Below, one piece after another: positions 28,288 to 62,407 of a DNA stretch of 64,000 nt. The notes beneath the pieces were generated by a model. It did not search any database. It had not been told where the DNA came from and saw only the letters and a program-made list of their open reading frames with translations. Both the position numbers and the translations under genes were made by a program. Position 1 is the stretch's first letter. Each line of letters begins with the position of its first letter. Origin of the DNA: Torpedo marmorata (lineage: Eukaryota); assembly GCA_977017645.1 (NCBI GenBank), contig OZ360253.1, positions 35,712,001 to 35,776,000 on the forward strand, in the 5' to 3' direction.

Positions 28288-28482
28288 TAAATTTAGACAT
28301 ACAGGCCCTGATCCCGTACCGCCTAATTACACCCAATTGACCTACAACCCCCGTACATTTTGGAGGGTGGGAGGAAACCCATGCAGGCATGGGGAGAATG
28401 TACAAACTCCTTACAGACAGCACCGGATGCAAACCCGAGTCGCCGGTACAGTGTTGCTCTAACCACTACGCTAACCGTGCCG
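28288..28482 (-). mobile_element. V-SINE (HE1-like)
   Basis: Reverse-strand V-domain and tail. Confidence 0.85.
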
Positions 28483-29317
28483 CTTGTTTAACCTTCAACT
28501 GCCACAACCATTTCCTTCCTTTCCTCCTTGATCCTGGCTTATCAGTTGACCAATGTTCCTTCATGTCACACTGAGTTAAATTTGCCGACAATCGTGTGGG
28601 GCGGGGATGCGGGGAAGTGTGCTATTGTATCCAGTTGTGCTGCTGACACAAAGCTGAGTCAGCATTTTGCTTGTGTGGAGGATGCAGAGAAGCTGAAAAG
28701 GGGTAGAACTGAAAAGCTAAAAACTGAAGCTGCTGAAAATCTGAAATAAAAGAAATAAATGCTCAAGGTACTCTGCAAGTCAGAAGTATTTCTGGAGTGA
28801 GAAATGGAGTGATTGTTTCAGATTGATACCAGATTGTGTGAATTGGCAAGAACATGGCAAGTGAACTGTTATGTGGAAAATGAATTTATCCACATTTTGG
28901 TTGGGGAAAAAAAAGTAGAAAATGTATTTTTTTAAGAAATGAACATTGCAAATTTTCAGTGGCCTGTGTATCCCTGAACGTGAATCACTGAAAGTTCACA
29001 TGCAGTTAAAACAATCAGGAGGGCATGAATTATATTGGAGTTTATTGCAAAAGGATTGAATTCAAGATTAACAATGTCCAGATGAAATTAGTTTGAACCT
29101 TGGCATGATTGCAATCCCCCCACTCCAGAATATTGTCGGCTTATAATAGTGGGAACAGCAATGGTCCAGCCTACTGCTTCCTGAAATGGAGTGATAATGC
29201 AGAAGACATTATGCATAGAGGCCCTTCACTGTCTAGAGTTTAGAAAATTGAGAAGTGATCTTATTATGCATACAAAATTCTTACATGCCACGATAAATGA
29301 GATGCAGGATGATGCAC

Positions 29318-29545
29318 ATTAGCGCAGGGGTTAACGCAACGCTGTTACAGCGCCAGCAACCTGGGTTTGAATAAGGCGCTGTCTGTAAGAAGTTTGTACG
29401 TTCTCCCCGTGACTGCATGGATTTTCCCCGGGTGTTCCAGTTTCCTACCACATCCCAAAATGTACGGGGTTGTAGGTTAATTTGGGTGTAATTGGGCGGC
29501 ACGGGTTTAAACGGCCGGAATCGGCTTCTACTGTGCTGTAAATAA
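29318..29545 (+). mobile_element. V-SINE (HE1-like)
   Basis: V-domain gtttgtacgttctccccgtg and tail. Confidence 0.85.
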
Positions 29546-29844: not shown

Positions 29845-30477
29845 GTAAGTACCCAGAGATGTGGAAACAAAATGTAAGAAAAGGAAAAGGCTCTTGGTGA
29901 ATGCATTCTTGTTCATTGATTCCCTTTTCCTGTCTCCCTGGAACTGATGTTCAAAATGTATTTGTTTTAATGAGAATATTTGTACTGTGCACTTCAGTGG
30001 CTTACTGTCCTTGTCTGGTAACTTACCGAATCATAGTCACACAGCACAGAACAGGCCCTTCAGCCCAGCTCGTCTCTGCTGACCAAATTCCATGATCACA
30101 AAGATAAAAGTATTCCAGCTAATTTTCCATCACATTGTAAATTTCTAATGTTGAATATATTGATGCCCAGGGGAAAATGCGGCAGCACCTGGCATTTTGA
30201 AATTACTGTATGATTTAAACATTTTCCTGTCGTGAAGTCCCTATGGAAGGCGGAGATAATGAGTGTCAAGCCATCCAAAGTTATCTGTTATTATCAATTT
30301 CTATTAAAAACATACCGAAATGCTGAAGGAACTCAGCCGGTCTTTCAGTGTCCATAGGAGACAAAGGTGTGTTGCTGAAGTTTCGGGCCTGAGCCCTTCT
30401 TCAAGGAATAAGCAGAAACAATTTATATGCAGCTTCATATGAGCAAGTTAACCCACTTGTGCACTTTTGTTTTCCAG

Positions 30478-30539: not shown

Positions 30540-30985
30540 GTAGGAAATCTTGCATTGATTGAGTATAAATTGATTTTAAAGGTATGACATATGAATGTCA
30601 GGTTTTTAATTATTAAACAATAATCATTGTTTAAATATAGTGATAGTCATTCAGCACGGAAAGAGGCTGTTCAGCTTGCCGGCTATCAAATACCTATCCA
30701 TACTGATCCCATTGATTTTATCAGCTTTGCACTACCAACAATGCCAATTGATATGTTCTGATGAAGGATCTTTGACCTGATACGCTGGGTTTCTTTTGAT
30801 CTCCCCAGTGAAATTTTTAGATCTTTAAAGTGCTTCCAGTATTATTTACTTTTGTTCCTACCTTCTCCATTGTGGGAGGCATTGGGCATTGTCCATGTTA
30901 TTATTCTTTAAATCATGAATATTGTCAGTTATGCTTGCCTAAATCAAATGTAAACACACCACTGTCAGATGGAGTAACTGCATAA

Positions 30986-31396
30986 AAGTAAAAGCACAAT
31001 GCTGGAGAAACTCAGCAGGTCAAATAGTGTTCTTTATATAGCAAAGATAAAAATACATAACCGACGTTTCGGGCTTGAGTCCTTCATCAAGGTATGGACA
31101 AAATGTCGGCAGGCGTCCGAATAAAAGGGTAAGGGGGGAGGTGTGGTCACAAAGGCAGGAGGTAATAGGTGGAGAAGGGAGGGAGGGCACAGCAGCAAGC
31201 AAGGAGAGGAGGGATGGCTAGGTGAATAGAGAGGGAAGGGGGTGGAGAGCTGACAGGGGGAAGGGAAGGGGGAGGGGGAAGAGGAGAGCAGGTTAGCAGA
31301 AACCGGAAAAGTCGATGTTAATACCATCTGACTGGAGAGTGGCCAGATGTAAAATCAGGTGTTGTTCCTCCAATTTACGGGTGGTCTTGGTGGGAT
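30986..31396 (-). mobile_element. PLE 3' fragment with terminal repeat (pLTR)
   Basis: Homologous to 40052-40455; RKLEEQHLI peptide; 13-bp TSD AGTAACTGCATAA (30973-30985 / 31397-31409). Confidence 0.85.
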
Positions 31397-31599
31397 AGTA
31401 ACTGCATAATTCTGAAGACCTGTGCCTAGTTTTTTTTTTCCATCCATGATTGCTGAGGCCACTTATGGTTCTAAGTTTGGATCTTCCTTTCATTAATTGC
31501 TTGCTTTGTACTGGTAATGTAGGTTTGATTCATTGGAGGTGTTTGAACTCCTCAAATTTCGCTGCCACGTGCCTAAACCCTGTCTTTTCATTCACACAG

Positions 31600-31792
31600 T
31601 ACGAACCTGAGCTATCATCTCGGCAGTTTGGAGTGGAAGTCTCCCGTCTAACCAATGACGAGAGGACAGTGCCGCTTGTGGTGGAGAAGCTGATCAATTA
31701 CATTGAAATGCATGGCCTGTACACCGAGGGAATTTACAGGAAGTCAGGATCGACCAACAAAATCAAGGAACTGAAACAAGGCCTGGATACAG
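31600..31792 (+). CDS. MYO9A: MYO9A exon, RhoGAP start (FGV...VPLVVEKLI...TEGIYRKSG)
   Basis: cacag| ... |gtaatg; arginine-finger motif EGIYR intact. Confidence 0.96.
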
Positions 31793-32195
31793 GTAATGGG
31801 CACCAACCAATCGAGTGGCTGCATTGACAGACTCCTCCAGCTCTGCAGGAGGGGTGAATGAGCATCCGTGAATTTAAGTGAAAGCAGAACTATATACTGG
31901 GGGTTTGTTTGTGATCAAGGATTGTAACAATGGTTGGTTGCATTTCAGTAATTCTAGAAATTTTATTATAGGAATTACATTGTAGAAATTCTCACCCATA
32001 TTTTGGGAGTGCCTTTATCGTGTGCGCCACAAGTTCTGGAAAAAAGCTGACCACGTACCAGAATGGCAGTGGGGATGCGGAGTAAATATTGGCTTCAGGA
32101 GAGTCACACATGAAGTTCACATTTCTATTTGTAAGAAGTTGAGAGGAAATTATATGACAGCTGCTTCTGGAACTGACTGGAATTTCTTTCTGCAG

Positions 32196-32324
32196 ATATT
32201 AACAGCATGAATTTGGATGAGTATAGCATTCACGTCATTGCCAGCGTTTTCAAACAATGGCTGCGAGATCTCCCGAATCCTCTAATGACCTTTGAACTCT
32301 ATGATGAGGTTTTGCGTGCAATGG
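32196..32324 (+). CDS. MYO9A: MYO9A RhoGAP exon (IHVIASVFKQWLRDLPNPLMTFELY)
   Basis: tgcag| ... |gtaagt; KxWLRxLPxPL motif. Confidence 0.96.
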
Positions 32325-32837
32325 GTAAGTGCAAGTTATTCTTCCAGTTCTGTGTTAATATTAGAAATGGATTCAATCATTTTGACAAAGAAAATAAAAA
32401 TTAAATTTGAAAGGAGTTGTTTGTCAGCTCATCTTTTCCACTAAAGTAAGACTGAACTGCATCCTTTCTACATAAAAGATACTGTTTGACCTGCTGAGTT
32501 ACTCCAGCATTTGTGTTTTTTACTGAACTGCATCCCTTGTGTGAGGAAAGTTTCTGGTATCATGTAGCATTTTTACTCTATTGTACTTTCTTCAAATCAA
32601 ATGTTATGGGGCAAGGCCAACTTCTTTCCCCCCCCCCTTTCTCTCACCCCCGACCCTTCCTGTCTCTCTCACCCAACCCTCCCTGCACACTCGTGTGCAC
32701 TTTTTCGTGTGGAATTGCAAATTAATGGAATAGAAAAGGAACCGACTAATTTTCATGTTCTTGAAGAAAGAGCATTGTTATGCTGCATTGAATTAGACAG
32801 TTCAGCTTTATCAGGACTAGAATCTGGAATATATATA

Positions 32838-33054
32838 GACATATAGCACAATAACAGGCCCTTTTGGCCCACTAGCCAGTGCCGCCCAAATACCCCAGTA
32901 CATTTTGAAAGGTGGGAGGAAACCGGAGCACCCAGAGGAAACCCACGCGGACACGGGGAGGACGTACAAACTCCTTACAGACAGTGGCGGCTTCGAACCC
33001 GGATCACTTGTGCTGTAATAGCATTGCGCTAACTGCTATGCTAACTATGCCACT
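32838..33054 (-). mobile_element. V-SINE (HE1-like)
   Basis: Reverse-strand V-domain and head. Confidence 0.85.
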
Positions 33055-33202
33055 CTTAACAGCCTTACTCTGTTTGTGAAGCATTTTTGAATATGTTAAT
33101 GGTATTTATCATAATTGCAGCTCTCTTGTCTTGATGTGGTTTGCTTACGTGTAATTAAAATATGGCTTTTGCTGAAGTGAAGGTTGTTTTCATTGTCCAC
33201 AG

Positions 33203-33308
33203 GTCTACAGGACCGGAAGGAAATGATTCATGGTGTATATTCTATAATTGATCAGCTGTCACGGACTCACGTCATTACGCTAGAGCGACTCATCTTTCAT
33301 CTTGTCAG
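33203..33308 (+). CDS. MYO9A: MYO9A RhoGAP exon (LQDRKEMIHGVYSIIDQLSRTHVITLERLIFHLV)
   Basis: cacag| ... |gtaaat; phase 1 to 2. Confidence 0.95.
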
Positions 33309-33564
33309 GTAAATATTTAAATGACATGCATCAGGATTTGGATATCTTAATTTTGCAGTGAAGGATTATATGAAGTAGATACATGTTTGAAAGATCAGGG
33401 AATTGATGGTGATGGGGAACTGGCATAGAAGAGGAGATGAAGGCTGGGGTAAATCAGCCATGATCACGTTAAATGGTGGGGCAGTCTTCAGGGGCCAAGT
33501 GACCTCCTCCTGCTCCTTTGTTCTTTTGTATTCCAACATTTTGTTCTTACCAGTAACACTGAAT

Positions 33565-33790
33565 GAATGAGTGGCTCTACACGGACATCCGTTGCGCAGT
33601 CCAAATCAGTGGGTGGGAAACAGATAGTTTCCCCATCAAGTCTGGAGTTAGGCAAGGCTGCCCGCTCTCTCCAGTCTTATTTGTGTGCTGCATAGAGCCC
33701 TTTGCTGAATCCATCAGGATGGATGAGGGCATAAGAGGAGTGACATTGCCAGGCAGTTGAGCCATTCAGGTCAAGGACTCCTTGACCGTT
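33565..33790 (+). mobile_element. L1/Tx1-clade RT fragment
   Basis: SGVRQGCPLSPVLFVCCIEPFAESIR. Confidence 0.8.
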
Positions 33791-33854
33791 GACGAAGTCC
33801 ACACTTAGAGATCCTGGATCCTTGTGAGCAACTCTCTTTAACATGGTGTCACTC

Positions 33855-34178
33855 AGAATCAGAATTTATTGTCATGAACATGTCACGAAATTTGTTGTTT
33901 TGTGGCAGCATCATAGTGCAAATATTTATATAAACCACCTTACAAAATAAATAAAAATAGTGCAAGAAAAAGACAAAGTAAGGCAGTGTCTGTGGTTCAT
34001 TGTTCATTCAGGAATCTGATGGCAGAGGGGAAGAAGCTGTCCTTGTGCTGCTGAGTGCTCGTCTTCAGGCTCCTGTACCTCCTTCCCGATGGTAGCAGAG
34101 TGAAGAGGGCATGGCCTGGGTGGTGGGGGTCCTTGAGGATAGAGGCTGCTTTCTTAAGACACCGCCTCTTGTAGATTT
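33855..34178 (-). mobile_element. Rex/Babar-like LINE 3' end (second subfamily)
   Basis: KDPHHPGHALFTLLPSGRRYRS; tail ending ttctgattctga on the minus strand. Confidence 0.8.
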
Positions 34179-34557
34179 CACTGTGCCAGTGATTAAAAAT
34201 CCCAGGCCTTTGTAGCTTGGTAGGGCAAACGAAAAGTAACATTGATGACTGAACTCGTTTACTTTTTATGCAAAAATACCTTGGACATTTGACATTCACA
34301 AGTTAGGTTGTCCCATGAAGTTGTGGCTAACATCAGAAAACCTCCCGACTGTTTATCAGACATTTTGCAGTTTATTCAGAGGTTATCGATGTGAGAGATC
34401 TCTCATCAGATAGCTGCAGTTGCATAAAAGCAGGTTTTTAAAAGTGTGGTGGCTCACATGATCTTTTCCCTGTTCTCTTCTGCTCCGCTTCAGTCTGGCA
34501 ACTGCAGTTGTTTTGAATTTTACACTGCTTTGGGAACAGGTGCAGAGAGTGAAATAT

Positions 34558-35272
34558 ATTAGAGCCATAGAATATTGCAGCACAGAAAACAGGCCCTTCG
34601 GCCCTTCTAGTCTGTGCAGAACTATTATTCTGCCTAGTCCCACTGACCTGCACCCACTCCATACCCCTCCCATCCATGTACCTGTCCACATTCTTAAATG
34701 TTAAAATTGAGCCTGCATTCTCCACGTCAGCTGGCAGCTCATTCCACACACCCACCACTCTCTGTGTGAAGAAGTTCCCCCTAAATTTTTCCACTTTCAC
34801 CCTTAACCCATGTCCTCTGGTTTGTATCTCACCTACCCTCAGTGGAAAAAACCTACCTACATTTACTCTGTCTATCCTCCTCATAATTTTAAATATCAAA
34901 TCTCTCCTCATTCTTCTACGCTCCAGGGAATAAAGTCCTAACCTGTTTAACCTTTCCCTGTAACACAGTTCCTGAAGCCCCAGCAACATCCTAGTAAATC
35001 TTCTCTGAACTCTTTCAATCTTATTGATATCTTTCCTGTGATTAGGTGACCAAAACTGCACACAATACTCCAAATTTGGCCTCACCAATGTCTTATATAC
35101 ATCTTTATCATAACATCCCAACTCCTTTCCTCAATACTTTGATTTATGAAGGCCAATATGCCAAAAGCTCTCTTTACAACCCTTTCCACCTGTGACACCA
35201 CTTTCAGGGAATTATGTATCTGTATTACCAGATCCCTCTGTTCTACCGCACTCCTCAGTGTCCGACCATTCG
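34558..35272 (-). mobile_element. CR1 LINE 3' fragment
   Basis: [15 protein letters not shown]...FFTQRVVGVWNELP. Confidence 0.92.
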
Positions 35273-35451
35273 TGACATTTATTGGAGAATTCTGTTCACA
35301 ATTCTCAAGTATGAAATGGAATTTTGCTCAGAAATGTATTCTTCAGGAGATCTCTAGCAAACTTATTCTGACAATACACTGCTGAGAGAGAAGAATAATT
35401 TTCATAATTCTCTTTTTTGTCACCCCCCTCGTTTGTTGTGCTCCTTTCCAG

Positions 35452-35583
35452 GATTGCCCTGCAAGAAGATACCAACCGGATGTCCTCAAATGCGTTGGCC
35501 ATCGTCTTTGCTCCATGCATTCTTCGATGTCCAGATACCACGGATCCTTTACAAAGTGTTCAAGATATTTCAAAAACAACTGC
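35452..35583 (+). CDS. MYO9A: MYO9A RhoGAP exon ([25 protein letters not shown]...)
   Basis: tccag| ... |gtaaga; NxMxxxxLAIVFxP motif. Confidence 0.96.
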
Positions 35584-35751
35584 GTAAGAATGCTTTCATT
35601 TCTTAACATGAACTTTGGTTTAAAGAGAGTAATAACACTGTAGTATTTATGCTATTAGCTTGTTTTCATGGTGATTGGAGAATATTTTAAAATAATGGTT
35701 ACTTGGGTTTTCACCTTGTGATGAGAACTTATTAGATTTAAAAAAAAAAAA

Positions 35752-36006
35752 AATTTAGACATACAGCACTGTAACAGGCCAATTTGGCCCTACGAGTCCG
35801 TGCCGCCCAATTTACACCCCATTAACCTACACCCTGGTACGTTTTTGAAGGGTGGGAGGAAACCAGAGCCCCCGGAGAAAACCCAGGCAGACACGGGGAG
35901 AACATACAAACTCCTTACAGACAACGCGGGATTCGAACCCAGGTCCAGTCCCGATCGCTGGTGCTGTAAAGGCGTTGCGCTAACCGCTACGCCAACCATG
36001 CCACCC
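35752..36006 (-). mobile_element. V-SINE (HE1-like)
   Basis: Full-length reverse copy with A-rich flank. Confidence 0.9.
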
Positions 36007-36110
36007 AAGCAAAATCTCTTGGCGAAATCACAGAAACTGCTAAATCTGGAATTTCGATTGACTAAAACTGGCTCATTTGCCTTTGTTGAAATAATATTCT
36101 TCAATAAGTA

Positions 36111-36672
36111 CCGTATTTGACGGCATATAAGACCCACTTTTTCCCCCCAAAAAATGGCTCAAAAATATCCCCGGGTCTTATATGGGAAGTTGAAATTAGA
36201 GTGATAATGGTGAGTAACGCCGACAGTGATCATCGTCGCTGCATGGCTCACTAGCATCACCGCCATCTATTGTTGGGGGCTGGTGGCGGGCTGTCGGGGG
36301 TGGGGGGGTGCAGGGCGGTGGGATCAGTGTGGGGGCTGGTGGCAGGCTGTCGGGGGGAGCAGGGTCGTGGGATCAGTGTGGGGGCTGGTGGCGGGCTGTC
36401 GGGAGACTCTCAGTGGCCCGCTGTCGGTCCCTGCACTGGTCCCGCTGCCCCATTCCCCCCGATAGCCCGCCACCAGCCCCAACACCGATCCCACCGCCTC
36501 GCTCCCTCCCGACAGCCCGCCACCAGCGCCCACACTGATCCCACCGCTACATATTTCAATAATGTTAAATGCTTACCCGTAAATACACTAAAAAAAAAAT
36601 TCTTAATATCCCCTGCTGAAATGGGGGGGGGGGTCATATATGCCTGTGGGTCTTATATGCTGTCAAATACGG
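36111..36672. mobile_element. Tc1/mariner-type MITE with internal GC-rich inverted tandem repeats
   Basis: 27-bp TIR CCGTATTTGACGGCATATAAGACCCAC (one mismatch) with TA TSDs. Confidence 0.88.
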
Positions 36673-37310
36673 TAATTCTAATGCATACAAATTAGTTTAT
36701 GACATTTCTGAAAAATAGGGAATACTCAGAAAAACTGAGAATTGTTATTTGCCCCGTCAGCCCTTTCCTGCTTCATCTGTTTTAAATTCTATTTGAACGT
36801 GCAGTTTTTCTGCTATACTGTTGCCACATTGAACCAAATGTTGTGGGTAAATATTGCATCAGTTAAACTGTACTTCTCAAAGGAAGATCAGAACAAGTTC
36901 CCATCCATGCAGTTTTTGATTTGAGTATTCACTAGCAGGTTTCACATTCATCTCAATGCCCTGCGTGAAATGACTCTGGAGGCAAAATAATAAAATAACC
37001 TGGATCATAATATTGAAGAAAGGAAAGCTGAGCCTTGTCTGAACTATGAGAGCATAGAAAGATAGAAGCATGGGCAGAACCATCGACCCTTTGAGGCTGC
37101 TCTGCCATTCAGTGTGACTGCAATTGATCCTCTGTCTCAGTTGCATGTTCCCCACCTATCCTCGCACTCCTTCATACCTCTAGTCTCCAGACATCTTTTT
37201 ATTTCCTCATTTTATGCATTCATTAATTTGACCTCCACAACCTTCTGTGGTAGACAATTCCACAGGTGCACCACTTTTGCAGTGAAGGAGCATCTCCTCC
37301 TCTCACCCCT

Positions 37311-38345
37311 AAACATCTCCTCCACAATCTCCATCAGTACTGGAGCACCACAGGGCTGTGTTCTTAGCCCCCTGCTCTACTCACTTTACACCTACGACTG
37401 TGTGGCTTGGTACGACAATAACACCATCTACAAATTTGCCGACGATACCACTGTAGTGGGTTGTATAAAGGAAGGGGATGAGTCAGCATACAGGATGGAG
37501 ATTGAAAACTTGGCTGAATGGTACAACAACCTTGCACTCAATGTCACCAAAACCAAGGAGCTGATGGTTGACTTCAGAAAGGGAAAACCAGAGATATACG
37601 ATCCAGTGATCATTGGGGGATCGGAGGTGGAGAGGGTGAGCAAATTTAATTTCTTGGGAGTCATTATCTCGGAGGATCTTTCCTGGACCCAAAACACTAA
37701 TGGCATCGTGAAGAAAGCACGTCAGCGCCTCTATTTCCTCGGGAGTTTGCGGAGGTTTGATATGACACCGGAAACCCTGGCAAATTTCTATAGATGTGTG
37801 GTGGAAAGGGTGCTCACCGGCTGCATCACGGTCTGGTATGGGGACACCAATACCCCTGAGCGTAAAGCCCTGCAAAAGGAAGTGGACATAGCCCAGGACA
37901 TCACAGGCAAAACCCTCCCCACCATCGAGAACATCTACAGGGAACACTGCCGTCGGAGAGCAGCAGCAATCCTCAAGGATCCACACCACCCAGCACACGC
38001 TCTGTTCACGTTGCTGCTATCAGGAAAGAGGTATAGGTGCCACAAGACTCGCACCACCAGGTTCAGGAACAGCTGCTACCCCTCCACCATCAGACTCCTC
38101 AACAACAAACTCAATCAGGGACTCATTTAAGGTCTCTTGTGTACTTTATTGATTTTTTTTTCATTCTCTCTGTATTGCACAGTCAGTTTGTTTACATTTC
38201 TTTATTTGTTTACATGTGTACATTGTGTACAGTTTTTTTTGCACTACCAATAAGTGATAATTCTGCCTCGCCTGCAGGAAAAAGAATCTCAGGGTTGTAT
38301 ATGATGTCATATATGTACTCTGACAATAAATCTGATTCTGAAATG
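37311..38345 (+). mobile_element. Rex/Babar-like LINE, 5'-truncated, RT C-half with open frame
   Basis: GAPQGCVLSPLLYSLYT, KFADDTT, open to the stop at 38130; tail aataaatctgattctgaa; inserted in an old minus-strand CR1. Confidence 0.9.
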
Positions 38346-39084
38346 TCATTCTTCATATTGTCTTTTCTCCGTGCATTCCAAGGACCCTGTGGAAAAATGA
38401 AATTCCTCCCAATGTCCAGCCTGTTAAGCCCTGTTACATGTTTTTACATTCCAATGAGATTTCCTCAAATTCTTCTAAGCTCTACTGAATGCAAGCCTTT
38501 TCATCCCAATCACTCCTCAAAGGTAATCGTGCAATCCCAGGTATCATTCTGATCACTCTTAAGGCACTCTGTTTTAACAAGCATATCCTTTCTGTGGTAA
38601 GGAGATTAAAATTCCTGGTGCCGTCTCACCAGGGCTCTGCGTAATTTTAGAAATACATCCTTCTTCCTTTACTGAAAACCCGTTGCAATGAATTTTGGTA
38701 CCATTGCCTTCTTTCGACTGCGCGACTCTTGCTGAGCCTGCATGTTTGCTTTCAGCAGTGGTGTCCATGGACACCAAAATCTCTCTCAACATTTTCCAAT
38801 GTAGCACCCTTTTAGTAAGTCTTCCAAATGATGAATTTCAAATGATGAATTCACATTTCTCCGTGTCATACTAGATCTGCCATGTATGTGCCCACTTAGT
38901 CAACTTGACTAAATTTGCATACTCACAATCCCCATCCAAATCCAGACAAATTCATGTCGTTATCAAACTAAAAATATTTTATTGGGTTCCCTCATTCAAA
39001 TAATTTATGTAAACTGTGAATAGCTGGGGCCCAGTGATTGCTATGATATCCCATGAGTCACCCCTTGCCATTCTGAAAGTTTTA

Positions 39085-39300
39085 AAAACACACCGAAATG
39101 CTGGAGGAACTCAACCGATCTTTTCAGCGTCCATAGGAGACAAAGATATATTACCGACGTTTCGGGCCTGAGCCCTTCTTCAAGGAATAAGCAGAATGAG
39201 TCAGAAGCAGGAAATCTCAGAAAGTCTCAGAATTCAGACAGTGCCGGCTGGGGGAGGAATCCAGACCAACAAAAGGAGTTAATTGGATATGATAAAGGGA
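39085..39300 (-). mobile_element. PLE terminal repeat, subfamily B (second copy at ~30308-30418)
   Basis: gaaatgctggaggaactc...ccgacgtttcgggcctgagcccttcttcaaggaataag shared by both copies. Confidence 0.75.
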
Positions 39301-40051
39301 GAGGTAAAAGTCCCTTATTCTGAAAATTTTATCAAGTACTATTTCCCTTTCATAAACCTTTGACTTTGCCTAATCCCTTTGATATTTTCCAAGTGTCCTG
39401 TTATCAAATCCAGGTTTGATTTTGTCTAATTCTGTGGTGGTCTGTAAGTGTCCTGTTATAATAACCTTAATAAATAGATTCCAGCAGCATTTTCCTGCTA
39501 CTGGCGTTGGGATAACCAGCTTACAGTTCTCTATTTCTCTCTTCCTCCTCTTTTAAATCGATTACATTTATCACCTTCCAATCTGCAGGAACCATTCCAC
39601 AATCTGCAGGGTCATGGCTGATGACAACCAATATATTCAGTCTTTCCAGTGCTACCATTTTTTTGTACTCTGGGTTGCAGATTGTCACACCCTTGGGATT
39701 TGTCATCTTTCAGTTTCATTAATTTCTCCATCACTGCTGGTTTTACTAGTATCACTTTCCTTTAATTCATCCTCTCATTTGACTCTTGGTTCCCCAACAT
39801 TTTTGGTAAGTAATGTGTGCCCTCTTATGAAGCTTGAATTGAAGTATTTATTTAATTGCTGTGCATGGGACCTTGGTTTGTCTTTACTGGACTTTTTCTT
39901 TTAACATATTTGTCCGTTTTACAGTCTGTTTTTATGTTCTTTTCAAGTTTACTCTCCTTTATTCTTGCTTCCTTCATCAAACGTTTGTCCTTTTTTTGCC
40001 GAATTCTAAGTGAATTGAATTGACAACATTTAGTTCACAGGCGTTTGCAGA

Positions 40052-41697
40052 AGTAAAAAACACAAATGCTGGAGAAACTCAGCAGGTCAAACAGTGTCTT
40101 TTATGTAGCAAAGGTAGAAATACATAACCGACGTTTCGGGCTTGAGCCCTTCATCAAAGTATGAGAAAATGCCGGCAGGCGTCCGAACAAAAGAGTGAGG
40201 GGGGAAGCGGGGGGGGGGTGGCAAAGGCAGGAGATGATAGGTGGAGAAAGGAGGGAGGGGACAGCAGCAAAGAGGGGGAGGAGGGATGGCTGGGTGGGTG
40301 GAAAAAAACAGGAAAGACAGGTGAGGGGGGAGGGGAAGGAAAAGACAAGCAGGTTTAGTGGAAAGCAGAAAAGTCAATGTTAATGCCATCTGGCTGGAGA
40401 GTACCCAGACGGAAAATGAGATGTTATTCCTCCAATTTGCGGGCAGTATGGGTGGGATGGTACATAAGGCCATGGACAGACATGTGAGTGTGGGAGTGTG
40501 ACTTGGAATTGAAATGGTTGGCTACTGGGAGGTTGCTGTTGTTGCGGACGGAGAGGAGGTGCTCAGCAAAGCGATCTCCCAATCTACGACCGGTCTCTCC
40601 GATGTAGAGTAAGCCACAAAGGGAGCACCGGATGCAGTAAATAAGTTCTCTGGATGTACAAGTGAAGTATAGCTTCACTTGAAAGGCCTGTTTGGGGCCC
40701 GGACCGTGGTGAGGGGGGAGGTGTGGGCGCAGATGTTGCACCTCCTGCGGGCACAGGGGAAGGTACCGGGGGTGCGATGGGTGGGGAGGGATGAGTGCAT
40801 GAGGGAATCGCGGAGGGAGCGGTCCCTGCGGAAGGCCGAGAGTGGAGGAGAAGGAAAAATGTGTCTGGTGGTCCTGAATGTGTCTGATCCTGTAGTAAGT
40901 GCCTTAAATTCTGGTGGATAATGTGTTGGATGCGGAGGCTGGTGGGGTGGTAGGTGAGGATGAGGGGGATTCTATGTTTGTTGCGTCTGGGGGTAGAGGG
41001 GGCCAGGGCAGATGAGCGGGAAATGGAGGAGATGCGGGTGAGGGCTGAGTTGATGGTGGTGGAGGGGAAGCCACGTTTGTGAAAGAAGGCAGACATTTCA
41101 GAAGATCTGGACTGGAAGACCTCATCTTGGGAACAGATTCGGCGGAGTCGGAGAAATTGAGAGAAGGGGATGGAATCCTTGCAGGGGACAGGGTGTGAGG
41201 AAGTGTAGTCCAGATAGTTGTGGGAGTTGGAGGATTTGTAGTAACTGTCGGTGGAAAGCTTGTCTCCCGAGTTGGAGACAGAGAGATCCAGGAAGGGGAG
41301 AGTGTTATCGGAGATGGACCAGGTGAGTTTGAGATCGGGATGGAAGTTGGACGCGAAGTGGATGAAGTTGACAAGTTCATCGCGGGTGCATGAGGCAGCC
41401 CCGATGTAGTCGTCGATATACCGGAGGAAGAGATGAGGGGTCTTGCCTGTGTAGGCTTGCAGCATGAATTGCTCCACAAAGCCCACAAACAGGCAGGCGT
41501 AGCTGGGACCCATGCGGGTACCCATGGCTACTCCTTTGATTTGGAGGAAGTGGGATGAGTTAAAGGAGAAGTTATTGAGAGTGAGGACAAGTTCTGCTTT
41601 GCTACATAAAAGACACTGTTTGACCGACTGAGTTTTTCCAGCATTTGTGTTTTTTACTTCAACCACAGTGTCTACAGATTTTCGTGATTTACTTCTT
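40052..41697 (-). mobile_element. Penelope-like element (Neptune-type), 5'-truncated, with inverted pLTR
   Basis: RT (GVAMGTRMGP, RYIDD), Cys linker GTFPCARRRCNICAH, GIY-YIG LIYCIRCSLCGLLYIGETGRRLGDRFAEH; pLTR at 40052-40165, inverted copy 41597-41697; TSD GC(G/A)TTTGCAGA; frameshifted. Confidence 0.92.
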
Positions 41698-42027
41698 GCA
41701 TTTGCAGAGGTGATGGGCTTAAATGCTGAGAATACAAGTGTGTAAAATAATTTTGGAATAAATTAAAGAGCAGGACCTTGGCATGCTAAATTTGAGTTGT
41801 GGATTTCTGCCATGAGATGTTGTGAATAAGACAATATGACTGAGTTTTTAATTTATTTGGTTGTGTTTCTGGAGAAAGGCTCGAGAGCAATGATTAAAAA
41901 CAAGATGATAATTTGAGTAACTGGAGTGGAATTGATAGAATTTCCCTTGATCTGCAAGATCACTCTTCGTTGAAGAGAGATGCTTCAAAAATAGAGTACT
42001 TCAGCAACACATTGATCTTCTCTGCAG

Positions 42028-42151
42028 GTGTGTGGAACTAATTATCATGGAGCAAATGAACAAGTACCGAGCACGTCTAAAGGACATCAGCAGCTTGGAG
42101 TTTGCAGAGAACAAAGCCAAGAATAGGCTGTCTCTCATCCGACACTCAATT
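42028..42151 (+). CDS. MYO9A: MYO9A exon, RhoGAP end (CVELIIMEQMNKY...RLSLIRHSI)
   Basis: tgcag| ... |gtaaga; ends in phase 0. Confidence 0.95.
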
Positions 42152-42719
42152 GTAAGAATTTTACTCAGATCTATGATACTGTAATATTGTTTCTTGTTCT
42201 AACTGCATTAAATGAAGACCCATTTCCCATTGAATGTAACAAAAATTTATATTTGCTGAGAATCCTCGTACTTTTAGAAATCTTGTGCATTCATCTTGTT
42301 TACTACATTGGTTAGTCAATTCTTTTCACGTTTTCTTTGAGTACGGAGTCTCTGTTGCTTTCCACCACGGTGTTGATTCAGCATGCATGTATGTTCTCGC
42401 TGTCCTGGGGTTCTTCTGCTGCTTCAGCTGTTGATATCGATCAGTCACTATTTTTATGGCCAACAAAGATTGAGTGACCTATGGATTAGGCCCATGCATT
42501 CTCCTGGTGGTTTTTATTTGAGTTTCCATTGTGTGTTTGGGAAAGTGTGCTGTTGGTAGAGAACAAGTGCTGTTCTGTGATCCTAAAGTAAATGTAGATG
42601 ATCTCTCTGGCTGCATTTGTAGCTGTTGCTTCATGACTCGTTGACATCTAGACTCGTGTCTCAATTTGACTTCTGTCACAGGGCAACATTTAGTCACCAT
42701 GGGTAAACCCACTCCACTT

Positions 42720-42960
42720 GGGGCGGCACAGTTAGCGTAGCAGATAGCGCAGTGCTCTTACAGCGCCAGGAATTGGGACCAGGTTCTAATCCGGTGCTGT
42801 CTGTAAGGAGTTTGTACGTTCTCCCCGTGTCTGCGTGGGTTTCCTCTGGGCGTTCCGGTTTCCTCCCACTGTTCAAAACGTACCGGGGGTTGTAGGTTAA
42901 TTGGGCGGCACGGGCTCGTGGGCCGAAAGGGCCTGTTACCGTGCTGTATGTCTAAAATTT
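42720..42960 (+). mobile_element. V-SINE (HE1-like)
   Basis: Full head, V-domain and tail. Confidence 0.9.
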
Positions 42961-45133
42961 AAAAATAAAAATAAAATTAAAATAATTTGGAATATAAATT
43001 CAATGTGACATGCATTGTTTGCAGAGTGGTCGGGGTATTTCTCAAATCTCTTGAAAACTGAATAATTACAGGAATTTGAGATTTTCAGCCGACACACACA
43101 AAAGGTGCAATATTCAGCTGGCAAGTTATGGTGCGCTGTTAGTTTGGAAATGCATATGCACACTATTGAAGGGTAATCTTGTCACATTGTGAAGTCTCCT
43201 GTTTAGGAATAGTCTATTTGGCAGGTCTGCATGACCATGGAATCACAATTATGCAGTATGGAGATTTGTCCCTACCAACCAGCGGGTTTCCTTCTGTATA
43301 AATCCCACCGCCCAGCACTTGGTCCGTAGCCCTCAATCACAAGGCAATTCAAGTGCTCCTCTGAGCATTTCTGAAATGCTGTCAGCGAGCAGGTTTTTAC
43401 CACTCAGGCCGTGCATTCCAGTGACTTGCACTCTGAGAGGAGGTCCCCCTCTGATCCCCTCTAAATCTCTCTTTCCTTGCCCTAAGCTTTTCCTAGCTTT
43501 ATCTACCTCTGATATGGGAAACATTTCCTGCTGTGCCTCTGCTTTGCCATACCACATGTTGCAGAGAAATTGACTTTTTTTATTTGAGGTAAAATTGCCT
43601 TGAAATCTTACATGGCTCTGTGTGAATCAGGATGAAAAGAATGATATGCACATTGTTTGCAGGGTAAGAGCCCTTAATTCCATCACTCTTGATTGCAGGA
43701 TTCAAAGTTCCATACAGCACTGATTCTTTTTTCCTTCATTCTTTTCAACTGGCAACATCACCGTTCATCTCTTGATTTTTGTCATGATGTCTCTGTGATT
43801 TTGGCACGTTAGCTGCCCTTTCTTTTAACCTAACAATGCAAATAATCAATGTAGTAGAAATTACACCAACATTGGAAAAGCAAATGAAATGTTCACTGGT
43901 GCCTCTTGTCAAAGGCACAACTTGTTTCCAAATGGCCTGGTCAAAACTTCTGCAAAATGAAAAGCTGATTAAAAGGTGAGAATTCCATGTTGAGCGTTTA
44001 AGGTGGTCTCAAGGTAAGAATTTAGTCACTTGTGTGTGAGGCTGTTGCAGGTAAAAGGTTTTACAAGTGTAAGCAATATAATTGCATTCACAAAGATTGG
44101 ATGCATAATTTCACATTAACATCCTTAGTCATTTTCTTTCTGACGTGTATGCAGTTTTTAAAAAATAGATGTTCAGTGTGTAACCTGTTCTGTAACATGT
44201 ACTAATCAGTGGCGTGTTGTAGTGGAGGTGGATTTCATGCTGTCCATGTGCTTTGATGTTGGTATTTTCCTTCTGTCAAATCTCCTTGAATCATATCAAA
44301 CCACTCATTACAACACAGTCCTGTTTGCATATTACCTGTGAATCTGTGTGCCTCTCTCTGTCATAGTCATTTCCAGTATGAGGTGCACTTAATTTGGCAA
44401 AGTGATTATTTGTAAATCATTTCCAATGGTAATTCTTTTGCAAATAAAGTATTGTACTAAACAAAGTTTTAAATTTAATAATAAATTTAAAGTTCTCCAG
44501 CAGCGTAATGTGTTGAAGATTCTGACAGGTAGTCTGTGGTCTGTGTACGAGTTGATCTCCATTTACTTGTAATGCATGTTTGAAATCCGTGCGAGCTCTT
44601 GATTGCTGTCCAGTGACTTCTATTGAACCGTGTACGCATGAACATAGATGAAGCCAGAGTTAAGGGGACCTATTGATAGTTGTGAGATGGTTCAATACAT
44701 TGATATTGGCCATTTAGTTCACCTAATGCAAGCTTAGAGTTTTAATCCAACTGATGTTATCTTCATTAAGTGAAAGAGGAAAATAAGTGGGGATGGGATA
44801 GGATTAAAAAGTGAAAGGTACATACAGTTTACAGAATAGCAACATTTGAAATTTAGTCAAAAGCAAAAAAAATCTGGAAACAGGCAGCATGAACGGAGAG
44901 AGAAGAGCAAAACTTGATATTCCAGGTCAAAGATCATTATCAGAATTGGAAAAATGAGAAATAGTTATGTTTTAAGTTGCAGAGAGGGGGAGGGGTGGAG
45001 TGAACAGAGGAAATACCATACTCTTTACTGACTCACAACAAGAAACATTCATTTTCCTTTAACCTGTATGTGCCTGTTGATTGCATGGTCAGACTAACCT
45101 GATCCTCTACTTTTCATGTTCTTTCTACTATAG

Positions 45134-45187
45134 AAACCAGTTATAATAGCGGTTAGATTCATGAGCATGAATCGCAATTTGATTCCG
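45134..45187 (+). CDS. MYO9A: MYO9A 54-nt cassette exon (KPVIIAVRFMSMNRNLIP)
   Basis: Branch point GACTAAC (45092-45098), pyrimidine tract, tag| ... |gtaggt; symmetric phase 0; resembles the KPVLIAVRFM optional exon of tetrapod MYO9A as I recall it. Confidence 0.85.
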
Positions 45188-46180
45188 GTAGGTATTCCTC
45201 CTCCACGCCACCAATTCCTTTCCATAATCCCATTCATCACTTGATAATTTATCTCAAGCCTCGGAAATAAACCAGATGTGCATTGTCTTGGAACAGAATG
45301 AGTTGTGTTGTTTGGAGTTTTTGCTATTGGTCGTGGTCTGTGTTATTTGCTCCTTTTGGCTGTTGCATTTTTCAGTATTTGACGTTTGAACGTTGGTTTT
45401 GGTATAAAGGTTGCATTGTGTGAAAGGTTAATGCTACAATAATGTAAGCTCCTGTTGAGTTATCTGTGAAAGATTTTCACATTTACACAGAGCAAGGTGC
45501 TTGACGTTCACTTGAGATTACTTTTCAAATTTATTTCCGCATTGAGCCAAGGTGATCTTCATACTCTGGTCACCGTTGTTTGCCGTGTTCAATAATTAGT
45601 CCTTCATATTCTCTAATTGGATTAAATAGCAAAATTCTTAATTTAAGGGACATGAATTACATATCAACTGCACACTTCAATGAAATGAGTGTTCTCAAAA
45701 AAATGTCAAGAGCACTTGCATGGTAGTTGGATCCATGCATCTCTTCATGCCATCGATTCATCAACTGCTTGGGTTTCTGCCCTAGCCTTTGTGCTCCTGG
45801 TATTGTCCAGGGCCAATTAATTCACCACATTTTGGTCAAGTCTTGGTTTTAGTAACATTAGATGATGATGAGTATTTTCCTGATGGGCTGTTTTATGTGG
45901 AATCTCAATGGAATCACTGCAATCCAACAAGAATCAGATTGACTACCATTGCACTTTATTATACACATTTTATTGCTTAAATTATAAGCAAACATTAGCC
46001 AGAAATGCTGAGTGGATGATCCATTTTTTGCCGCCTCAAGCCCCACCACAGCTAATTTGATTTTTCTCCATGTGTTTATCAAGAAATGGTGGAAAGCACC
46101 ATATGGAGCAAAGGCTGCCTGATTATAGAATACGTGCTGCAGCGCTGAAAACAGATTCATCCAGCAAGCATCCAGTCAAG

Positions 46181-46462
46181 TTAAACAGGAAAGTCTGCAG
46201 ACGCTGTGATTGTAGTGCAATGCACAAAAGTGCTGGAGAAACTCAGCAGGTCGTGCATCATCTAGAGGAAGTAAAGGGTAACAAACGTTTTGGGCCTGAG
46301 CCTTTCATCAAGAGCTTTACGAAGGGCTTACCTTGACGAAGGACTCAGGCCCAAAACGTTGGTCACCCTTTACTTCCTATAGATGCTGCGTGACCTGCTG
46401 AGTTTCTCCAGCACTTTTGTACATTGCACTAGACGACAGTATCTGCAGATGTTCTTGTTGAC
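46181..46462. repeat. Palindromic pair of PLE terminal repeats (~130-bp arms)
   Basis: 46181-46312 is the diverged reverse complement of 46331-46462. Confidence 0.88.
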
Positions 46463-47054
46463 CTCAGGTTTTACAGTACCCCCCTGTCTGTTCTGTTCAA
46501 GAGTTTGAGAAAATGCCATACAGAACAGTCAGACATTGTGTTTCAATGTTGGTTCTTGTCAGATGGGTGAGGAGTTCAAGAAAGTAGCTACATTTTATCT
46601 GATTACTCCTGTGATTCCGAGATGAAAACTTTGCCAGTGATCTATGCCATCTGCTTGAAAGGCATCTGAGGTTGACACTTGCCTTGATTCTGAGCATTGC
46701 AGCAGCAGAGTGCTTTTGCCAGTGGCACCTGACGTGCAAGTTGAGCACAAACCATCAAAAACTAGTTCTTCAAGCTCCTTGTAGTAGCACAGTTTTGTTG
46801 GTTGGTAATGACAGCTCCAAACTTCAGGTAGAACATTGAAGGTGGTAGTATGAGAGAATACCAATAAAGAAAGAGCTGTTAACAAAACAGTTCTATCTGA
46901 TTTACTCAGGAGCCATGGGCTGTTAATACACTTCAGTCAACTTTATTTATTTACATTAGCATAAATTTCCTTTGTTAAATGGTTTGTTGGAGGGGCCTAG
47001 GTGGTCTGTTTCTGTGCTGTAATTGTTCTATGGTTGTGGCAAATTTCTTTGCAC

Positions 47055-47956
47055 TGTTACAAATTCAAACCAGCAACGACAGAAGACGCAATGCAAAAGG
47101 GGTAAAATTGAAATGACTATTTATTAAACACAATTAAACATATAATTTCACAACAATTAACCCCACTATAAACGTCTATAAACACTATTCTTAACTAAAA
47201 GGTGTGTGTGTGTGTGTGTGTGTAAAGCCCAGACCATTACAGTCTGTGCCCAACCCTGATGTAAAAATGGAAAAACTTTCCCCAAAAACCCCAGGTCAGT
47301 CATAAAAAACAAGTCAGTCAAAAAAAAGGATAATACAGTCTACAAAATTCACTCTCTAAGTTCAGGCTTCAACTTCAGCTCTGTGTCTGGTAGAAGTACT
47401 TCTGAATGAACGTTGGAGAGAGACAATGACTGTTTATGCTTACAAATACTTGTTTTCTTCTCTGATGACGTCCCCTTCTTGTATGTTCATAAGGATTTCG
47501 AGTTCAGATCAGTATACCACTGATTTAGGCGTATGCTTGAATCTCACAGCTAGTCTCGCTGATCTCACGCCTGTTCTCCACAGAAGTTGCTTTTCCTCAG
47601 AATTTCTCTGAGACAGGAGGCCATGTGCTATCCTGCCAGTCTTTTCTCTCTGGCTGTGCAAGCCTGGATTTGGCTGTGTCCTCTAGCCTTTGCAACTTAC
47701 AACTGTCTGCCTTGTGCAGTGAACTACACCTGCTTTTTGCAAAAGTGAAACAAATGTATCTTGTCCACAGTCTGTCTCTCTCTCTGGTCTCTCTCTGTCT
47801 GGGTACACCAAGAGTGCAACAATGTATCTTGTCTGGGTACACCAAGTCGCTGGGGAAGTTAACTCTTTCAGTACCTGGCCCCAGTGTGTACTCCAAAAGA
47901 CTTCATCCTTCCTGCTGACCGTCCACAGTCCAAATGGTCAGTCATGGTCCATAACA
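47055..47956 (-). mobile_element. Solo LTR (~900 bp)
   Basis: TGTTA...TAACA termini, 4-bp TSD GCAC, AATAAA on the minus strand near 47120; contains (TG)n at 47202-47223. Confidence 0.75.
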
Positions 47957-49112
47957 GCACGGAGGAGCAAAGAATAGCATTGAGAGTTGAAATAGTATAT
48001 TTTTGGTTCGTTTCTTCACCTTTCGCACAATATTATATTGGTGATTATTTCAGAACAGGGTCAGCCTTTTTGGACCATGAGAGATTTCTTCACAGAGGAT
48101 TGCATATTTTTTGGAATTCTTGAGCATCAGGTTTGTGAATGCTCAGTCTTAGAACACAGAACAGTACAGCAGAGTGCGAGCCCTTTGGCCCACAATGTTG
48201 TGCTGACCTATGTAATTGAGGGATGCCACGAAACGTTGGTTATGTATTTCTACCTTTGCTACATAAAAGACACTGTTTGACCTGCTGAGTTCTCCAGCTT
48301 TTGTGTTTTTTACTATGTAATCTGTCCCTTCCCTCCCTCACAGCCCATAACCCTCCATTTTTCTTGTATCCATGTGCCTATTTAAGAGTCTTTTAAATGT
48401 TCTACTGTATCATCCTAAAATAAAATAAAACCCTACCTCTGGCATCCCCCCCCCTCCTAAACTTTCCTCCACTTGTCTTAAATGGATGTCCTCTGGAATT
48501 GGCCATTTCCAACCTTGGGAAAAGGTGATGACTGTCCACTCTATCTATGCCTCTCATAATCTTATATACCTCTTAAGTCACCTCTCATCCTCCAGCCTGA
48601 GCTGATTCAACCTTTCTGTTATTGAATACATCCAAGGCAAAGATCCAGAGGTAATTGAATACCAAGGAAAGCGGGGTGGGGGGGCGGGGGAGGAAGATGC
48701 TGAGGCACAGTATTAGAACTATGTGGTGGAAGACTCAAAGGACCTTGTTTATCCAGGACTCTTGGTCTCGAATGCAGCAACATCAGATGTTTTTGATGTA
48801 AGGTGAACAGTTTTAATCACCATTTAATTTAGCAATTGGATTCTGGGGTGTGATCATTCGCTAATGCATTAAGATTGGACTGTAGATTTCCAGATGCAGG
48901 AATATCAGAGATCGATCTGCAGTTCAGAAATGTGTGTTAAGTTACAGTTTTAACTTTTGATCCTGTTCTTAATTTTGCAAATTGATGGTGTAAAACTCAG
49001 GTGTTTTATTTTCTTTTGAACAGCATAATTTCTGGAGAGTGCAAATGAAGAACAGTATGTTGTTTAAACATGAGACTGCCTTGCGTGATGTTGAAGTGTT
49101 GTATCTATAGCA

Positions 49113-49602
49113 AACAGTAAAACACGAAAGTCTGCAGACACTGTGGTTGAGGTAAAAACACAATGCTGGAGAAACTCAGCAGGTCAAACAGTGTACTTTA
49201 TGTAGCAAAGATACATAACCAACGTTTCGGGCTTGAGCCCTTCATCAAATTAACATCGACTTCTCCGGTTTCTGCTAGCCCACTCCATGTTCTCCCTCTC
49301 TTCCCCATCCCTCTGTCTTCTTTCCTCCAGCTCTCCACTCCCTTCCCTCTCCATTCACAGAGCCATCCCCCCTCCCCCTGCTTGCTGCTGTGCCCTCCCA
49401 CCCTTATCCACCTATTACCTCCTGCCTGTGGGACTGTGCTCCTCCCCCTGCCCCTCCTAACCATATTGTTCAGACGCCTGCCTACATTTTGATCATACTT
49501 TGATGAAGGGCTCAAGCCCGAAACGTCGGTTATGTATCTTTATCTTTGCTATACAAAGTACGATGTTTGACCTGCTGAGTTTCTCCAGCATCGTGTTTTT
49601 AC
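49113..49602 (+). mobile_element. PLE 3' end preceded by inverted pLTR
   Basis: Inverted arms ~49155-49248 / 49499-49602; 11-bp TSD TATCTATAGCA. Confidence 0.88.
49493..49534 (+). ncRNA. Minimal type I hammerhead ribozyme motif in pLTR (U3 variant)
   Basis: cauacu-UUGAUGA-A-GGGC(UCAA)GCCC-GAAA-CG-UC-gguuaug. Confidence 0.65.
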
Positions 49603-50222
49603 TATCTATAGCAGTCGTTGGGTTACCTAGTCTGATAGCACACAGGTCTTCATCTATGCAGTAACAATGTAAATAATGACTATCACAATAATATTTATGA
49701 AATAAGAGATTTGTGGAATCAAATTGAAGGTAGCTTTGAACCATCTTGGCCCACACCATGTCTGTGCCGTTTCACAAATCACTTGATCTTTCTGGAAATA
49801 AGTTTAGCAAAAGTCGTTGAAACTTTTCATGTTTTCTCTTTGTTGCTCATGCAGCCGAATGGTAATAAAAAGGTAATTTGGTTTGTCTGTTATATGTGCT
49901 TTTCGTGATGTCCTTTTCTTGGTGATGGCTCTTCCAAATGTAGCACCACACTGCATCGACTCCAGTGCATGAGGGATGCCCATCAAATGTTTTAAAATGC
50001 AACAAACCTGCTTGCCACAGAGTCTGGAATAAAGAAGAAAGCTATTCTCAACCCATTTCCTGTTCCTCTATGGTTCAGTCTGAACTTGAACTTGCAAGTT
50101 TTACTTTATGCTTTTGAGGTTCGTCATATCACAGTTTTATTTTAATTGTAGGTTTAATGTGCTTTGACCCAAAATACCCCATGGGCGCAGGTTGTGTGAG
50201 GAACAGTGATGTTGATTTCAGG

Positions 50223-50447
50223 AGTAAAACACAAAAGTCCGCAGACACCGTGGTTGAAGTAAAAACACAATGCTGGAGAAACTCAGCAGGTCAAACAGTG
50301 TACTTTATATAGCAAAGATAAAGATATGTAACCAATGTTTTGGGCTTGAGCCCAAAACATTGGTTACGTATCTTTTATCTTTATCTTTGCTGCATGAAGT
50401 ACACTGTTTGACCAGCTGAGTTTCTCCAGCATTGTGTGTTAACTTCA
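50223..50447. repeat. Fold-back palindrome of PLE terminal repeat
   Basis: Axis at the TTGA loop 50346-50349; arms ~95 bp. Confidence 0.88.
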
Positions 50448-61415: not shown

Positions 61416-61424
61416 AAAAACTAG

Positions 61425-62390: not shown

Positions 62391-62407
62391 GCATTCTAAA
62401 ACTTCCA

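Follow-up and report, generated by a model that had tools for sequence, protein, structure and literature searches.

The terminal repeats of Penelope-like elements (PLEs) carry minimal hammerhead ribozymes, and the present analysis concerns a family of such motifs in a stretch of 64,000 nucleotides from the ray Torpedo marmorata (GenBank assembly GCA_977017645.1, contig OZ360253.1, positions 35,712,001 to 35,776,000 of the forward strand). This whole stretch is called the window; positions are numbered on it, and the counts and coordinates of copies refer to this single 64-kb window. The motif recurs in the introns of the myosin IXa gene (MYO9Aa) as part of a likely Neptune-type element, and its core combines U at position 3 with G at position 8, where the published consensus has C3.

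The minimal hammerheads described in PLEs (Cervera and De la Pena 2014, PMC4209133) are inactive as monomers and weak as dimers. They agree with the window motif in their type I topology, the extra base between positions 9 and 10.1, the pair G10.1-C11.1, the short stem I, the palindrome at 15.2-16.2 without a stem III loop, the place in the terminal repeat and the predominance of solo, truncated copies. Fish Neptune elements are named in that work and no cartilaginous fish is among its 56 representatives; the window motif differs by its U3-G8 combination and by a stem II of 4 bp, shorter than many of those described. In the Poseidon element of Anolis carolinensis (Frangieh et al. 2024, PMC11167929), a hammerhead likewise lies upstream of two adjacent starts of reverse transcription, which make an optional tail; both target strands are primed there, the hammerhead was cut only in the presence of the protein, and insertion drew mainly on uncut RNA, so that copies derive from it as they seem to in the window. 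Unlike the window element, whose linker zinc finger points to Neptune and whose cleavage is a prediction, the Anolis element belongs to the Poseidon clade and has a C3-G8 core with the start of the open reading frame inside the hammerhead.

Endonuclease-positive PLEs also form insertions with inverted terminal repeats and a tail (PMC3846280; bioRxiv 10.1101/2021.04.23.441226), in which head-to-head arms, a tail of 30-40 bp usually at one end, target duplications and junction palindromes occur as in the window; no substantial difference is apparent from the published descriptions, and one window junction passes through the hammerhead's stem II. Natural core variants (Perreault et al. 2011, PMC3088659; cited in PMC7151607) show that position 3 can be U, one saltern variant having U3 and G8 with a two-base insertion. 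These variants are rare and microbial and U3 is usually compensated by A8, whereas the window family is very abundant and keeps G8. Type I hammerheads related to those of PLE terminal repeats are further found in retrozymes without long terminal repeats (non-LTR retrozymes; PMC7229834; bioRxiv 10.64898/2026.07.22.740005), which were present in one chondrichthyan genome sampled. An identification as a non-LTR retrozyme was rejected: these are tandem units with at least two complete hammerheads, whereas the window copies are solo or head-to-head, not head-to-tail tandem units with complete hammerheads, and are linked to reverse transcriptase (RT) and endonuclease sequence. A literature search for chondrichthyan PLE ribozymes returned unrelated work only.

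What the hammerhead contributes to Penelope elements with an endonuclease has been called unclear (bioRxiv 10.1101/2021.04.23.441226), and a very abundant family with an uncompensated U3-G8 pair offers a direct comparison on this point. If such a family thrives while barely cutting, then either the element can do without cleavage or cleavage has to be slow; should the element's protein restore the variant, protein assistance would extend to a damaged core. Search descriptors that require C3 overlook whole ray families.

Hammerhead motif and parent element

Both a plain core search and an nhmmer profile of eight window copies recovered the motif at the places given by a first-pass annotation of the window; the profile gave these copies 86-104 bits, and the best score in five shuffled windows was 8.5. 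A covariance model whose training set was limited to 26 metagenome motifs with C3 found exactly eight places at E <0.005, the best match beyond these, among 38 up to E 10, having E 0.46; this search is partly circular, as the training pattern had a fixed core and most of stem II. Four motifs, named here by their position 3, are complete (49500 on the plus strand; 40157, 31090 and 39183 on the minus strand) and correspond, with minor corrections (Table 1), to those annotated at 49493-49534, about 40122-40163, about 31056-31096 and about 39148-39190. The motif annotated at about 49216-49248 is present as well (copy 49248, minus strand), but it begins at about position 3 and lacks the 5' strand of stem I. 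The degenerate motifs expected at about 30372-30410 and in both arms of 46181-46462 were found as the decayed copies 30404 (minus), 46333 (plus) and 46311 (minus).

Apart from position 3, the core (U4 G5 A6 N7 G8 A9, G12 A13 A14 A15.1, U16.1, H17) is intact in 49500, 40157, 31090, 39183 and 49248 and decayed in 30404, 46333 and 46311. The extra base between 9 and 10.1 is present, and stem II is closed by G10.1-C11.1, with loss of G10.1 at 46311 only. Stem III is the palindrome ACGU in seven of the eight copies, as had been stated. Stem I is short and open-ended (type I), with six pairs and one bulge in subfamilies A and B; its strand CAUACC, quoted earlier for the family, is found at 31090 only, both other full subfamily A copies carrying CAUACU, so that a U-G pair closes stem I. 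No hammerhead family was among the 13 Rfam matches up to E 5 in the window, as expected because the motif has no stem III loop; the matches to microRNA families are inverted arms and other hairpins, under gathering scores.

In the element at 40052-41596, tblastn with the PLE protein P0003 gave matches at 41597-40881, 40908-40693 and 40699-40361. A PLE-type RT is followed by a GIY-YIG endonuclease at the C terminus (E 5e-4, under the Pfam cut-off), and hammerhead 40157 lies about 200 nt behind the end of the latter (40361). The zinc finger of the linker that joins RT and endonuclease, CX4CxxC, fits the pattern CX2-5CxxC common to Neptune and Nematis elements (bioRxiv 10.1101/2021.04.23.441226), and the closest RT relatives are from bamboo shark (73%). 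An inverted truncated arm, a tail on one end and a target duplication (about 11 bp around 40052-41699) complete the Penelope layout. The parent is likely a Neptune-type endonuclease-positive PLE, a label taken from the linker motif and the host group. The recurring sequences are a minimal type I hammerhead motif of Penelope terminal repeats, an earlier identification that the fold of the motif and its place behind the endonuclease support.

State and age of core position 3

The outgroup set comprised 127 matches of the same architecture in 118 metagenome loci (L019-L136), many of which are repeated families. Viral contigs (L001-L018; C3 in 18 of 18 matches) were left out of it because almost none has a short palindromic stem III, most having longer stem III regions. 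All eight window copies that extend to core position 3 have U3 and G8, and C3 is found in 124 of the 127 outgroup matches. A published alignment of 56 PLE representatives (PMC4209133, Fig. S3) contains 53 with C3-G8, two with U3-A8 (Schistosoma) and one with U3-G8, a Saccoglossus PLE printed without comment; the variant thus has one printed precedent and was not first seen here. The U3-G8 wobble, a pairing predicted from sequence, lies outside the published consensus and inside the published set. The window copies also depart from the strict hammerhead consensus, which has C3 with a Watson-Crick 3-8 pair and a stable intramolecular stem III.

From the outgroups, rather than from relics in the window, C3 can be taken as the ancestral state. 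The first-pass annotation had proposed that U3 was fixed recently in the currently active lineage, of which older copies would retain C3. The greater age of C3 stands on the outgroup and published counts, and two very old window fragments do have a C3-like heptamer (30758 and 56437). These heptamers score at noise level with the C3-trained covariance model (E 3.7 and 7.4), are too decayed to carry an argument about old copies of the lineage and are at best members of another, older family. The 56437 fragment does align with further old fragments that bear a tail (0-1 of 300 shuffles equally good) and the 30758 fragment less well (at best 1 of 300 shuffles, over six comparisons). U3 is not limited to young copies, being also carried by the decayed subfamily B and C copies (30404, 46333 and 46311) and common to subfamilies A, B and C, which are mutually 73-81% alike. 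A recent fixation is therefore very unlikely.

Logan contigs of four organisms (runs X1, X2, X7 and X11, of which X1 may derive from the same source as the window) were aligned to copy 40157 and counted only if at least 80% alike, a filter that excludes diverged C3 families from the variant shares. A change of U3 to C is absent among the 40 variants listed of 87, the lowest maximum share among those listed being 11.6% (40167). This suggests, if variants are ranked by share, that C3 stays below about 12% in each of the four runs, and U3 appears to be the majority state in the four organisms.

Comprehensive mutagenesis of another hammerhead (PMC9901934) rescued the 3-8 pair by a C-G swap only, the other single and double mutants there having low activity. 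Because all changes of this region except the swap gave low activity, it is likely, by analogy, that U3 weakens self-cutting. We lean, by a small measure, towards an old, weakened U3-G8 hammerhead of a Neptune-type PLE that would cut slowly, either as a dimer or with the help of the element's protein.

Conservation of the fold and covariation of stem I

Between subfamilies A and B, both U3, none of 22 constrained positions differs (one of 22 with copy 31090), against 18 of 58 downstream positions (Fisher p 0.001-0.009). Within the motif their differences are confined to N7, loop II and paired stem I positions, and the unpaired catalytic bases G5, A6, G8, A9, G12, A13 and A14 are fixed while N7 varies. 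Contrasts between B and C gave p 0.03. Since A and B differ in this way after sharing U3, the fold appears to have been kept under constraint after U3 arose.

The covariation of stem I claimed in the first-pass annotation holds in part. Two compensatory stem I pairs do separate subfamilies A and B, and 14 of 500 shuffles of the window copies match the covariation score; on the other side, the window offers five distinct rows and one subfamily contrast, and 304 of 500 shuffles match the number of covarying pairs. With two changes placed on each strand, exact compensation would arise by chance in about 0.7% of cases, or in 2-4% once the choice of bulge is allowed for. Stem I variants in the contigs are not clearly compensated (2.4 U>G at 15% in X1, against 0.2% at the partner), although a shifted bulge could absorb them. 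Among the 26 metagenome motifs the covariation of stem I is strong, 0 of 500 shuffles reaching it; this shows the architecture to be under constraint in nature and is not evidence on the ray family, for which the conservation between A and B is the better argument.

The covarying register, in which 86% of cells are paired, bears on whether the C before the two U's might be the true C3, the core then having a one-base insertion as in saltern variants. Natural low-activity hammerheads with insertions near C3 exist (PMC3088659), and the C3-trained model put a gap there in two decayed copies. That C, however, pairs with G1.1 in the covarying register, slid registers pair in 6-46% of cells only, and the most abundant X1 form (82%) has U at this place, leaving no C in either register; a shifted register is barely credible.

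Predicted folding

For subfamily A motifs in isolation the predicted preference is for an inactive rod, with the 5' core strand paired to the stem III region; for subfamily B it is for the open form. With C put at position 3 in silico, the open fold of 41-nt motifs became 0.3-2.2 kcal/mol more costly by prediction, and rod pairing rose in each of the four full copies. On this basis U3 could be nearly neutral, part of the 3-8 pair being lost while the inactive rod, in which position 3 pairs with the G-G start of stem I, is weakened, with a net activity close to that of C3 PLE hammerheads. Once 145 nt of context are included, however, the difference between C3 and U3 is only -0.35 to +0.9 kcal/mol, and a rod is the predicted fold of 61 of 74 natural metagenome motifs as well, C3 in almost every case; several published C3 motifs likewise start the 3' strand of stem I with G-G (PMC4209133). 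We regard near-neutrality of U3 as unlikely.

When eight copies were co-folded, the active dimer was never the minimum-energy form. The 4-bp stem III duplex is worth -1.7 kcal/mol only, so weak that the folding model is silent on dimer activity. The z-scores for folding, between -2.2 and +1.3, were weak.

Predicted cut, decay after insertion and rival roles

Thirteen 5' ends were measured, the query edge being put at the palindrome centre for the two 50.3-kb arms. None lies within 11 nt of the predicted cut; eight are 12-41 nt upstream, three 15-27 nt downstream and two far upstream. As no measured 5' end sits at the predicted cut, the window copies likely came from uncut RNA. Contig depth in the four organisms, a rough measure, has one maximum at the hammerhead and another at the tail hairpin, separated by a dip (clear in X2, X7 and X11), and in none of the four runs does it drop upstream of the predicted cut.

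With a weakened hammerhead, insertion might proceed as follows. The element's protein would nick the target, and the cDNA would begin either about 78 or about 113 nt downstream of the predicted cut, so that reverse transcription would have to pass through the hammerhead. Only uncut RNA would then give copies with coding sequence, and a slow ribozyme would for this reason be tolerated or favoured. Reverse transcription would often halt or switch strand in the hammerhead hairpin, yielding stubs and head-to-head pairs, and the inserted copies would leave the host pre-mRNA uncut.

Once inserted, copies show G12>A about as often as the change at its CpG partner (C11.1>U) in three runs (11/9, 9/9 and 28/29%; 4/9% in X11), from which we infer that they decay neutrally. 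Cleavage of the host pre-mRNA was also considered and is unlikely; the only intact sense copy (49500) carries a complementary arm 250 nt upstream.

The clustering of 5' ends and inversion points in the hammerhead also fits a non-catalytic motif, kept for protein binding, as a pause or strand-switch point of the RT, or for an overlapping promoter signal. The spread of U3, U17 and the U-G closing pair in source elements, the rod predicted to pair the core of isolated subfamily A motifs, the X2 joints at 40144-40150 (among those listed) and the normal insertion in vitro of Anolis catalytic mutants (PMC11167929) are in keeping with such a role. Fixation of G5, A6, G8, A9, G12, A13 and A14 between A and B while N7 changes is, by contrast, the pattern to be expected from catalysis and not from a plain hairpin, and a purely structural role seems rather improbable to us.

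Several observations weigh against the slow ribozyme that we prefer. In source elements U17 exceeds its CpG partner (18/12, 58/6, 63/19 and 37/4%) and the prevailing base at 2.1 in X1 is U (82%); the spread of both fits relaxed selection as well as it fits tuning. Contrasts between subfamilies A and C are not significant (p 0.13 and 0.27), and the conservation between A and B reflects constraint on sequence and does not prove catalysis. Uncut copies and inverted junctions do not need U3, because C3 families yield both (an inverted copy lies within 150 nt upstream in 25 of 111 metagenome C3 contexts). Naiad elements, which have no hammerhead, are reported to proliferate well (bioRxiv 10.1101/2021.04.23.441226), so that neither cleavage nor its weakening need matter. 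Finally, no cleavage data were found in the literature covered, which does not include Lunse et al. 2017, for any U3-G8 PLE hammerhead.

A stronger form of the weakened-ribozyme reading is possible but doubtful: a very abundant ray PLE clade would have a wobble 3-8 pair with the rest of the core kept through subfamily splits, and the motif would be either a ribozyme switched on only by its own protein or a former ribozyme acting as the pause or strand-switch point that builds inverted ends. If true, the family would test, in nature, what use Penelope elements make of their hammerheads.

Insertions of the family and host gene

Every family copy between 30304 and 56520 is intronic in myosin IXa; among named proteins the closest is that of the electric ray Narcine bancroftii (84% across an exon of 567 residues), and those of other rays come next. 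Coordinates are given in Table 1.

Table 1. Positions of the hammerhead motifs, of the insertions that carry them and of related features in the window
Feature	Position	Strand	Remarks
Hammerhead motif, subfamily A	49494-49534	+	U3 = 49500; predicted cut after 49527
Hammerhead motif, subfamily A	40123-40163	-	U3 = 40157, G8 = 40152, G12 = 40137; predicted cut after 40130; covariance model E 7e-10
Hammerhead motif in the 30986-31400 copy	31056-31096	-	U3 = 31090; one stem II mismatch
Hammerhead motif, subfamily B	39149-39189	-	U3 = 39183, A7, covaried stem I; best match of the C3-trained model, E 1e-10
Partial hammerhead motif	49214-49248	-	No 5' stem I strand; U17
Decayed hammerhead motif, subfamily B	30370-30410	-	U3 = 30404; stem III palindrome and stem I broken
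Decayed hammerhead motifs, subfamily C	46327-46367 (+), 46277-46311 (-)	both	U3 = 46333 / 46311; both G12A, U17
5'-truncated Neptune-type Penelope-like element (likely)	40052-41596	-	C-terminal half of RT and thumb, CX4CxxC linker, GIY-YIG endonuclease (frameshifted, stops), pyrimidine-rich 3' UTR (untranslated region), hammerhead, short tail
Inverted tail arm of the 40052-41596 insertion	41597-41699	+	Starts 16 nt downstream of predicted cut; long tail
Direct arm	49249-49603	+	3' UTR, hammerhead, short tail; same sense as host pre-mRNA
Inverted arm	49113-49248	-	Begins at about U3; long tail; 88% complementary to direct arm 49249-49603
5'-truncated subfamily A copy	30986-31400	-	Hammerhead 31056-31096; 14-bp target duplication
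Subfamily B copy	39084-39196	-	Hammerhead 39149-39189
Decayed subfamily B copy	30304-30417	-	5' start same as 39084 copy
Head-to-head pair of subfamily C arms	46184-46459	.	Both U3, G12A, U17
Palindrome of two subfamily A arms	50220-50447	.	Joined through stem II (50342-50353); 5' half of core missing
Stub starting at end of stem II	48229-48314	+	Target duplication about 10 bp
Tail-only stub	32461-32524	+	Target duplication about 14 bp
Head-to-head stub, outside the stretch of the first-pass annotation	62407-62582	.	Long-tail arm starting in stem II and short-tail arm; target duplication about 14 bp
Second RT fragment, same family	15957-16845	-	96% alike to 41087-41597; no hammerhead end kept
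Very old inverted pair, related tail-bearing family	56358-56520	.	Plus arm with C3-like heptamer at 56437, no intact hammerhead; E 7.4
Possible very old relic	30751-30830	+	C3 heptamer at 30758; weak homology; E 3.7
Myosin IXa (MYO9Aa), 3' part, host gene	exons 1147-58102	+	Protein matches to exons

Target duplications of at least 10 bp were found at seven of the 11 insertions tested, one of them weak, and include a 12-bp duplication around 49113-49603. In a plus-strand transcript the inverted arm of that insertion is predicted to pair with its direct arm. Five insertions are head-to-head; in four of them one end is short and the other about 35 nt longer, and the subfamily C pair has two long ends. 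Both arms of this pair are predicted to be dead as ribozymes. Apart from their U3 core, the window copies are ordinary insertion debris.

The arms of the palindrome at 50220-50447 meet inside stem II and have four changes relative to the family in common (G12, 16.2, N17 and one stem I base), which implies that one of them is a copy of the other or underwent conversion; had the template already carried these four changes, the hammerhead that was retrotransposed would have been dead. Both subfamily B copies (39084-39196 and 30304-30417) start about 41 nt upstream of the cut, which could reflect a truncation hot spot or a short non-autonomous unit. In the tail (40052-40102 and 39084-39135, both minus strand) a long stem-loop is predicted in A and B despite about 30% divergence; it coincides with a depth peak in other organisms and is a candidate binding or start signal for the RT. 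Very old fragments with the family's tail hairpin motif, in which the hammerhead is mostly lost, lie at 11118-11229, 12733-12775, 28755-28787 and 56358-56412.

A second contig set covered the 66 bases at 31045-31110, other letters being scored at 31075-31080 only, with position 3 outside; run X19 contributed one contig and run X12 102. Among the joints listed, X2 on 40040-40235 and X1 on 31045-31110 show same-strand joints from stem II or the core back to the tail of the preceding copy, which are short head-to-tail duplications of hammerhead segments. The metagenome loci (L019-L136) contain several C3 minimal hammerhead families with frequent inverted junctions just 5' of the core.

Other repeats in the window

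A GC-rich imperfect inverted repeat of about 270 bp (36274-36547) is intronic and unrelated to the Penelope family. A dispersed repeat of about 250 bp, probably a short interspersed element (SINE), is present in nine copies that are 68-87% alike (4455-4715, 8052-8308, 10849-11121, 28282-28484, 29314-29540, 32830-33059, 35750-36006, 42720-42978 and 61172-61428). Fragments of other RT-encoding elements were found at 20097-21060 and 55098-56071 (91% alike) and at 21761-22430 and 37667-38335 (86% alike).

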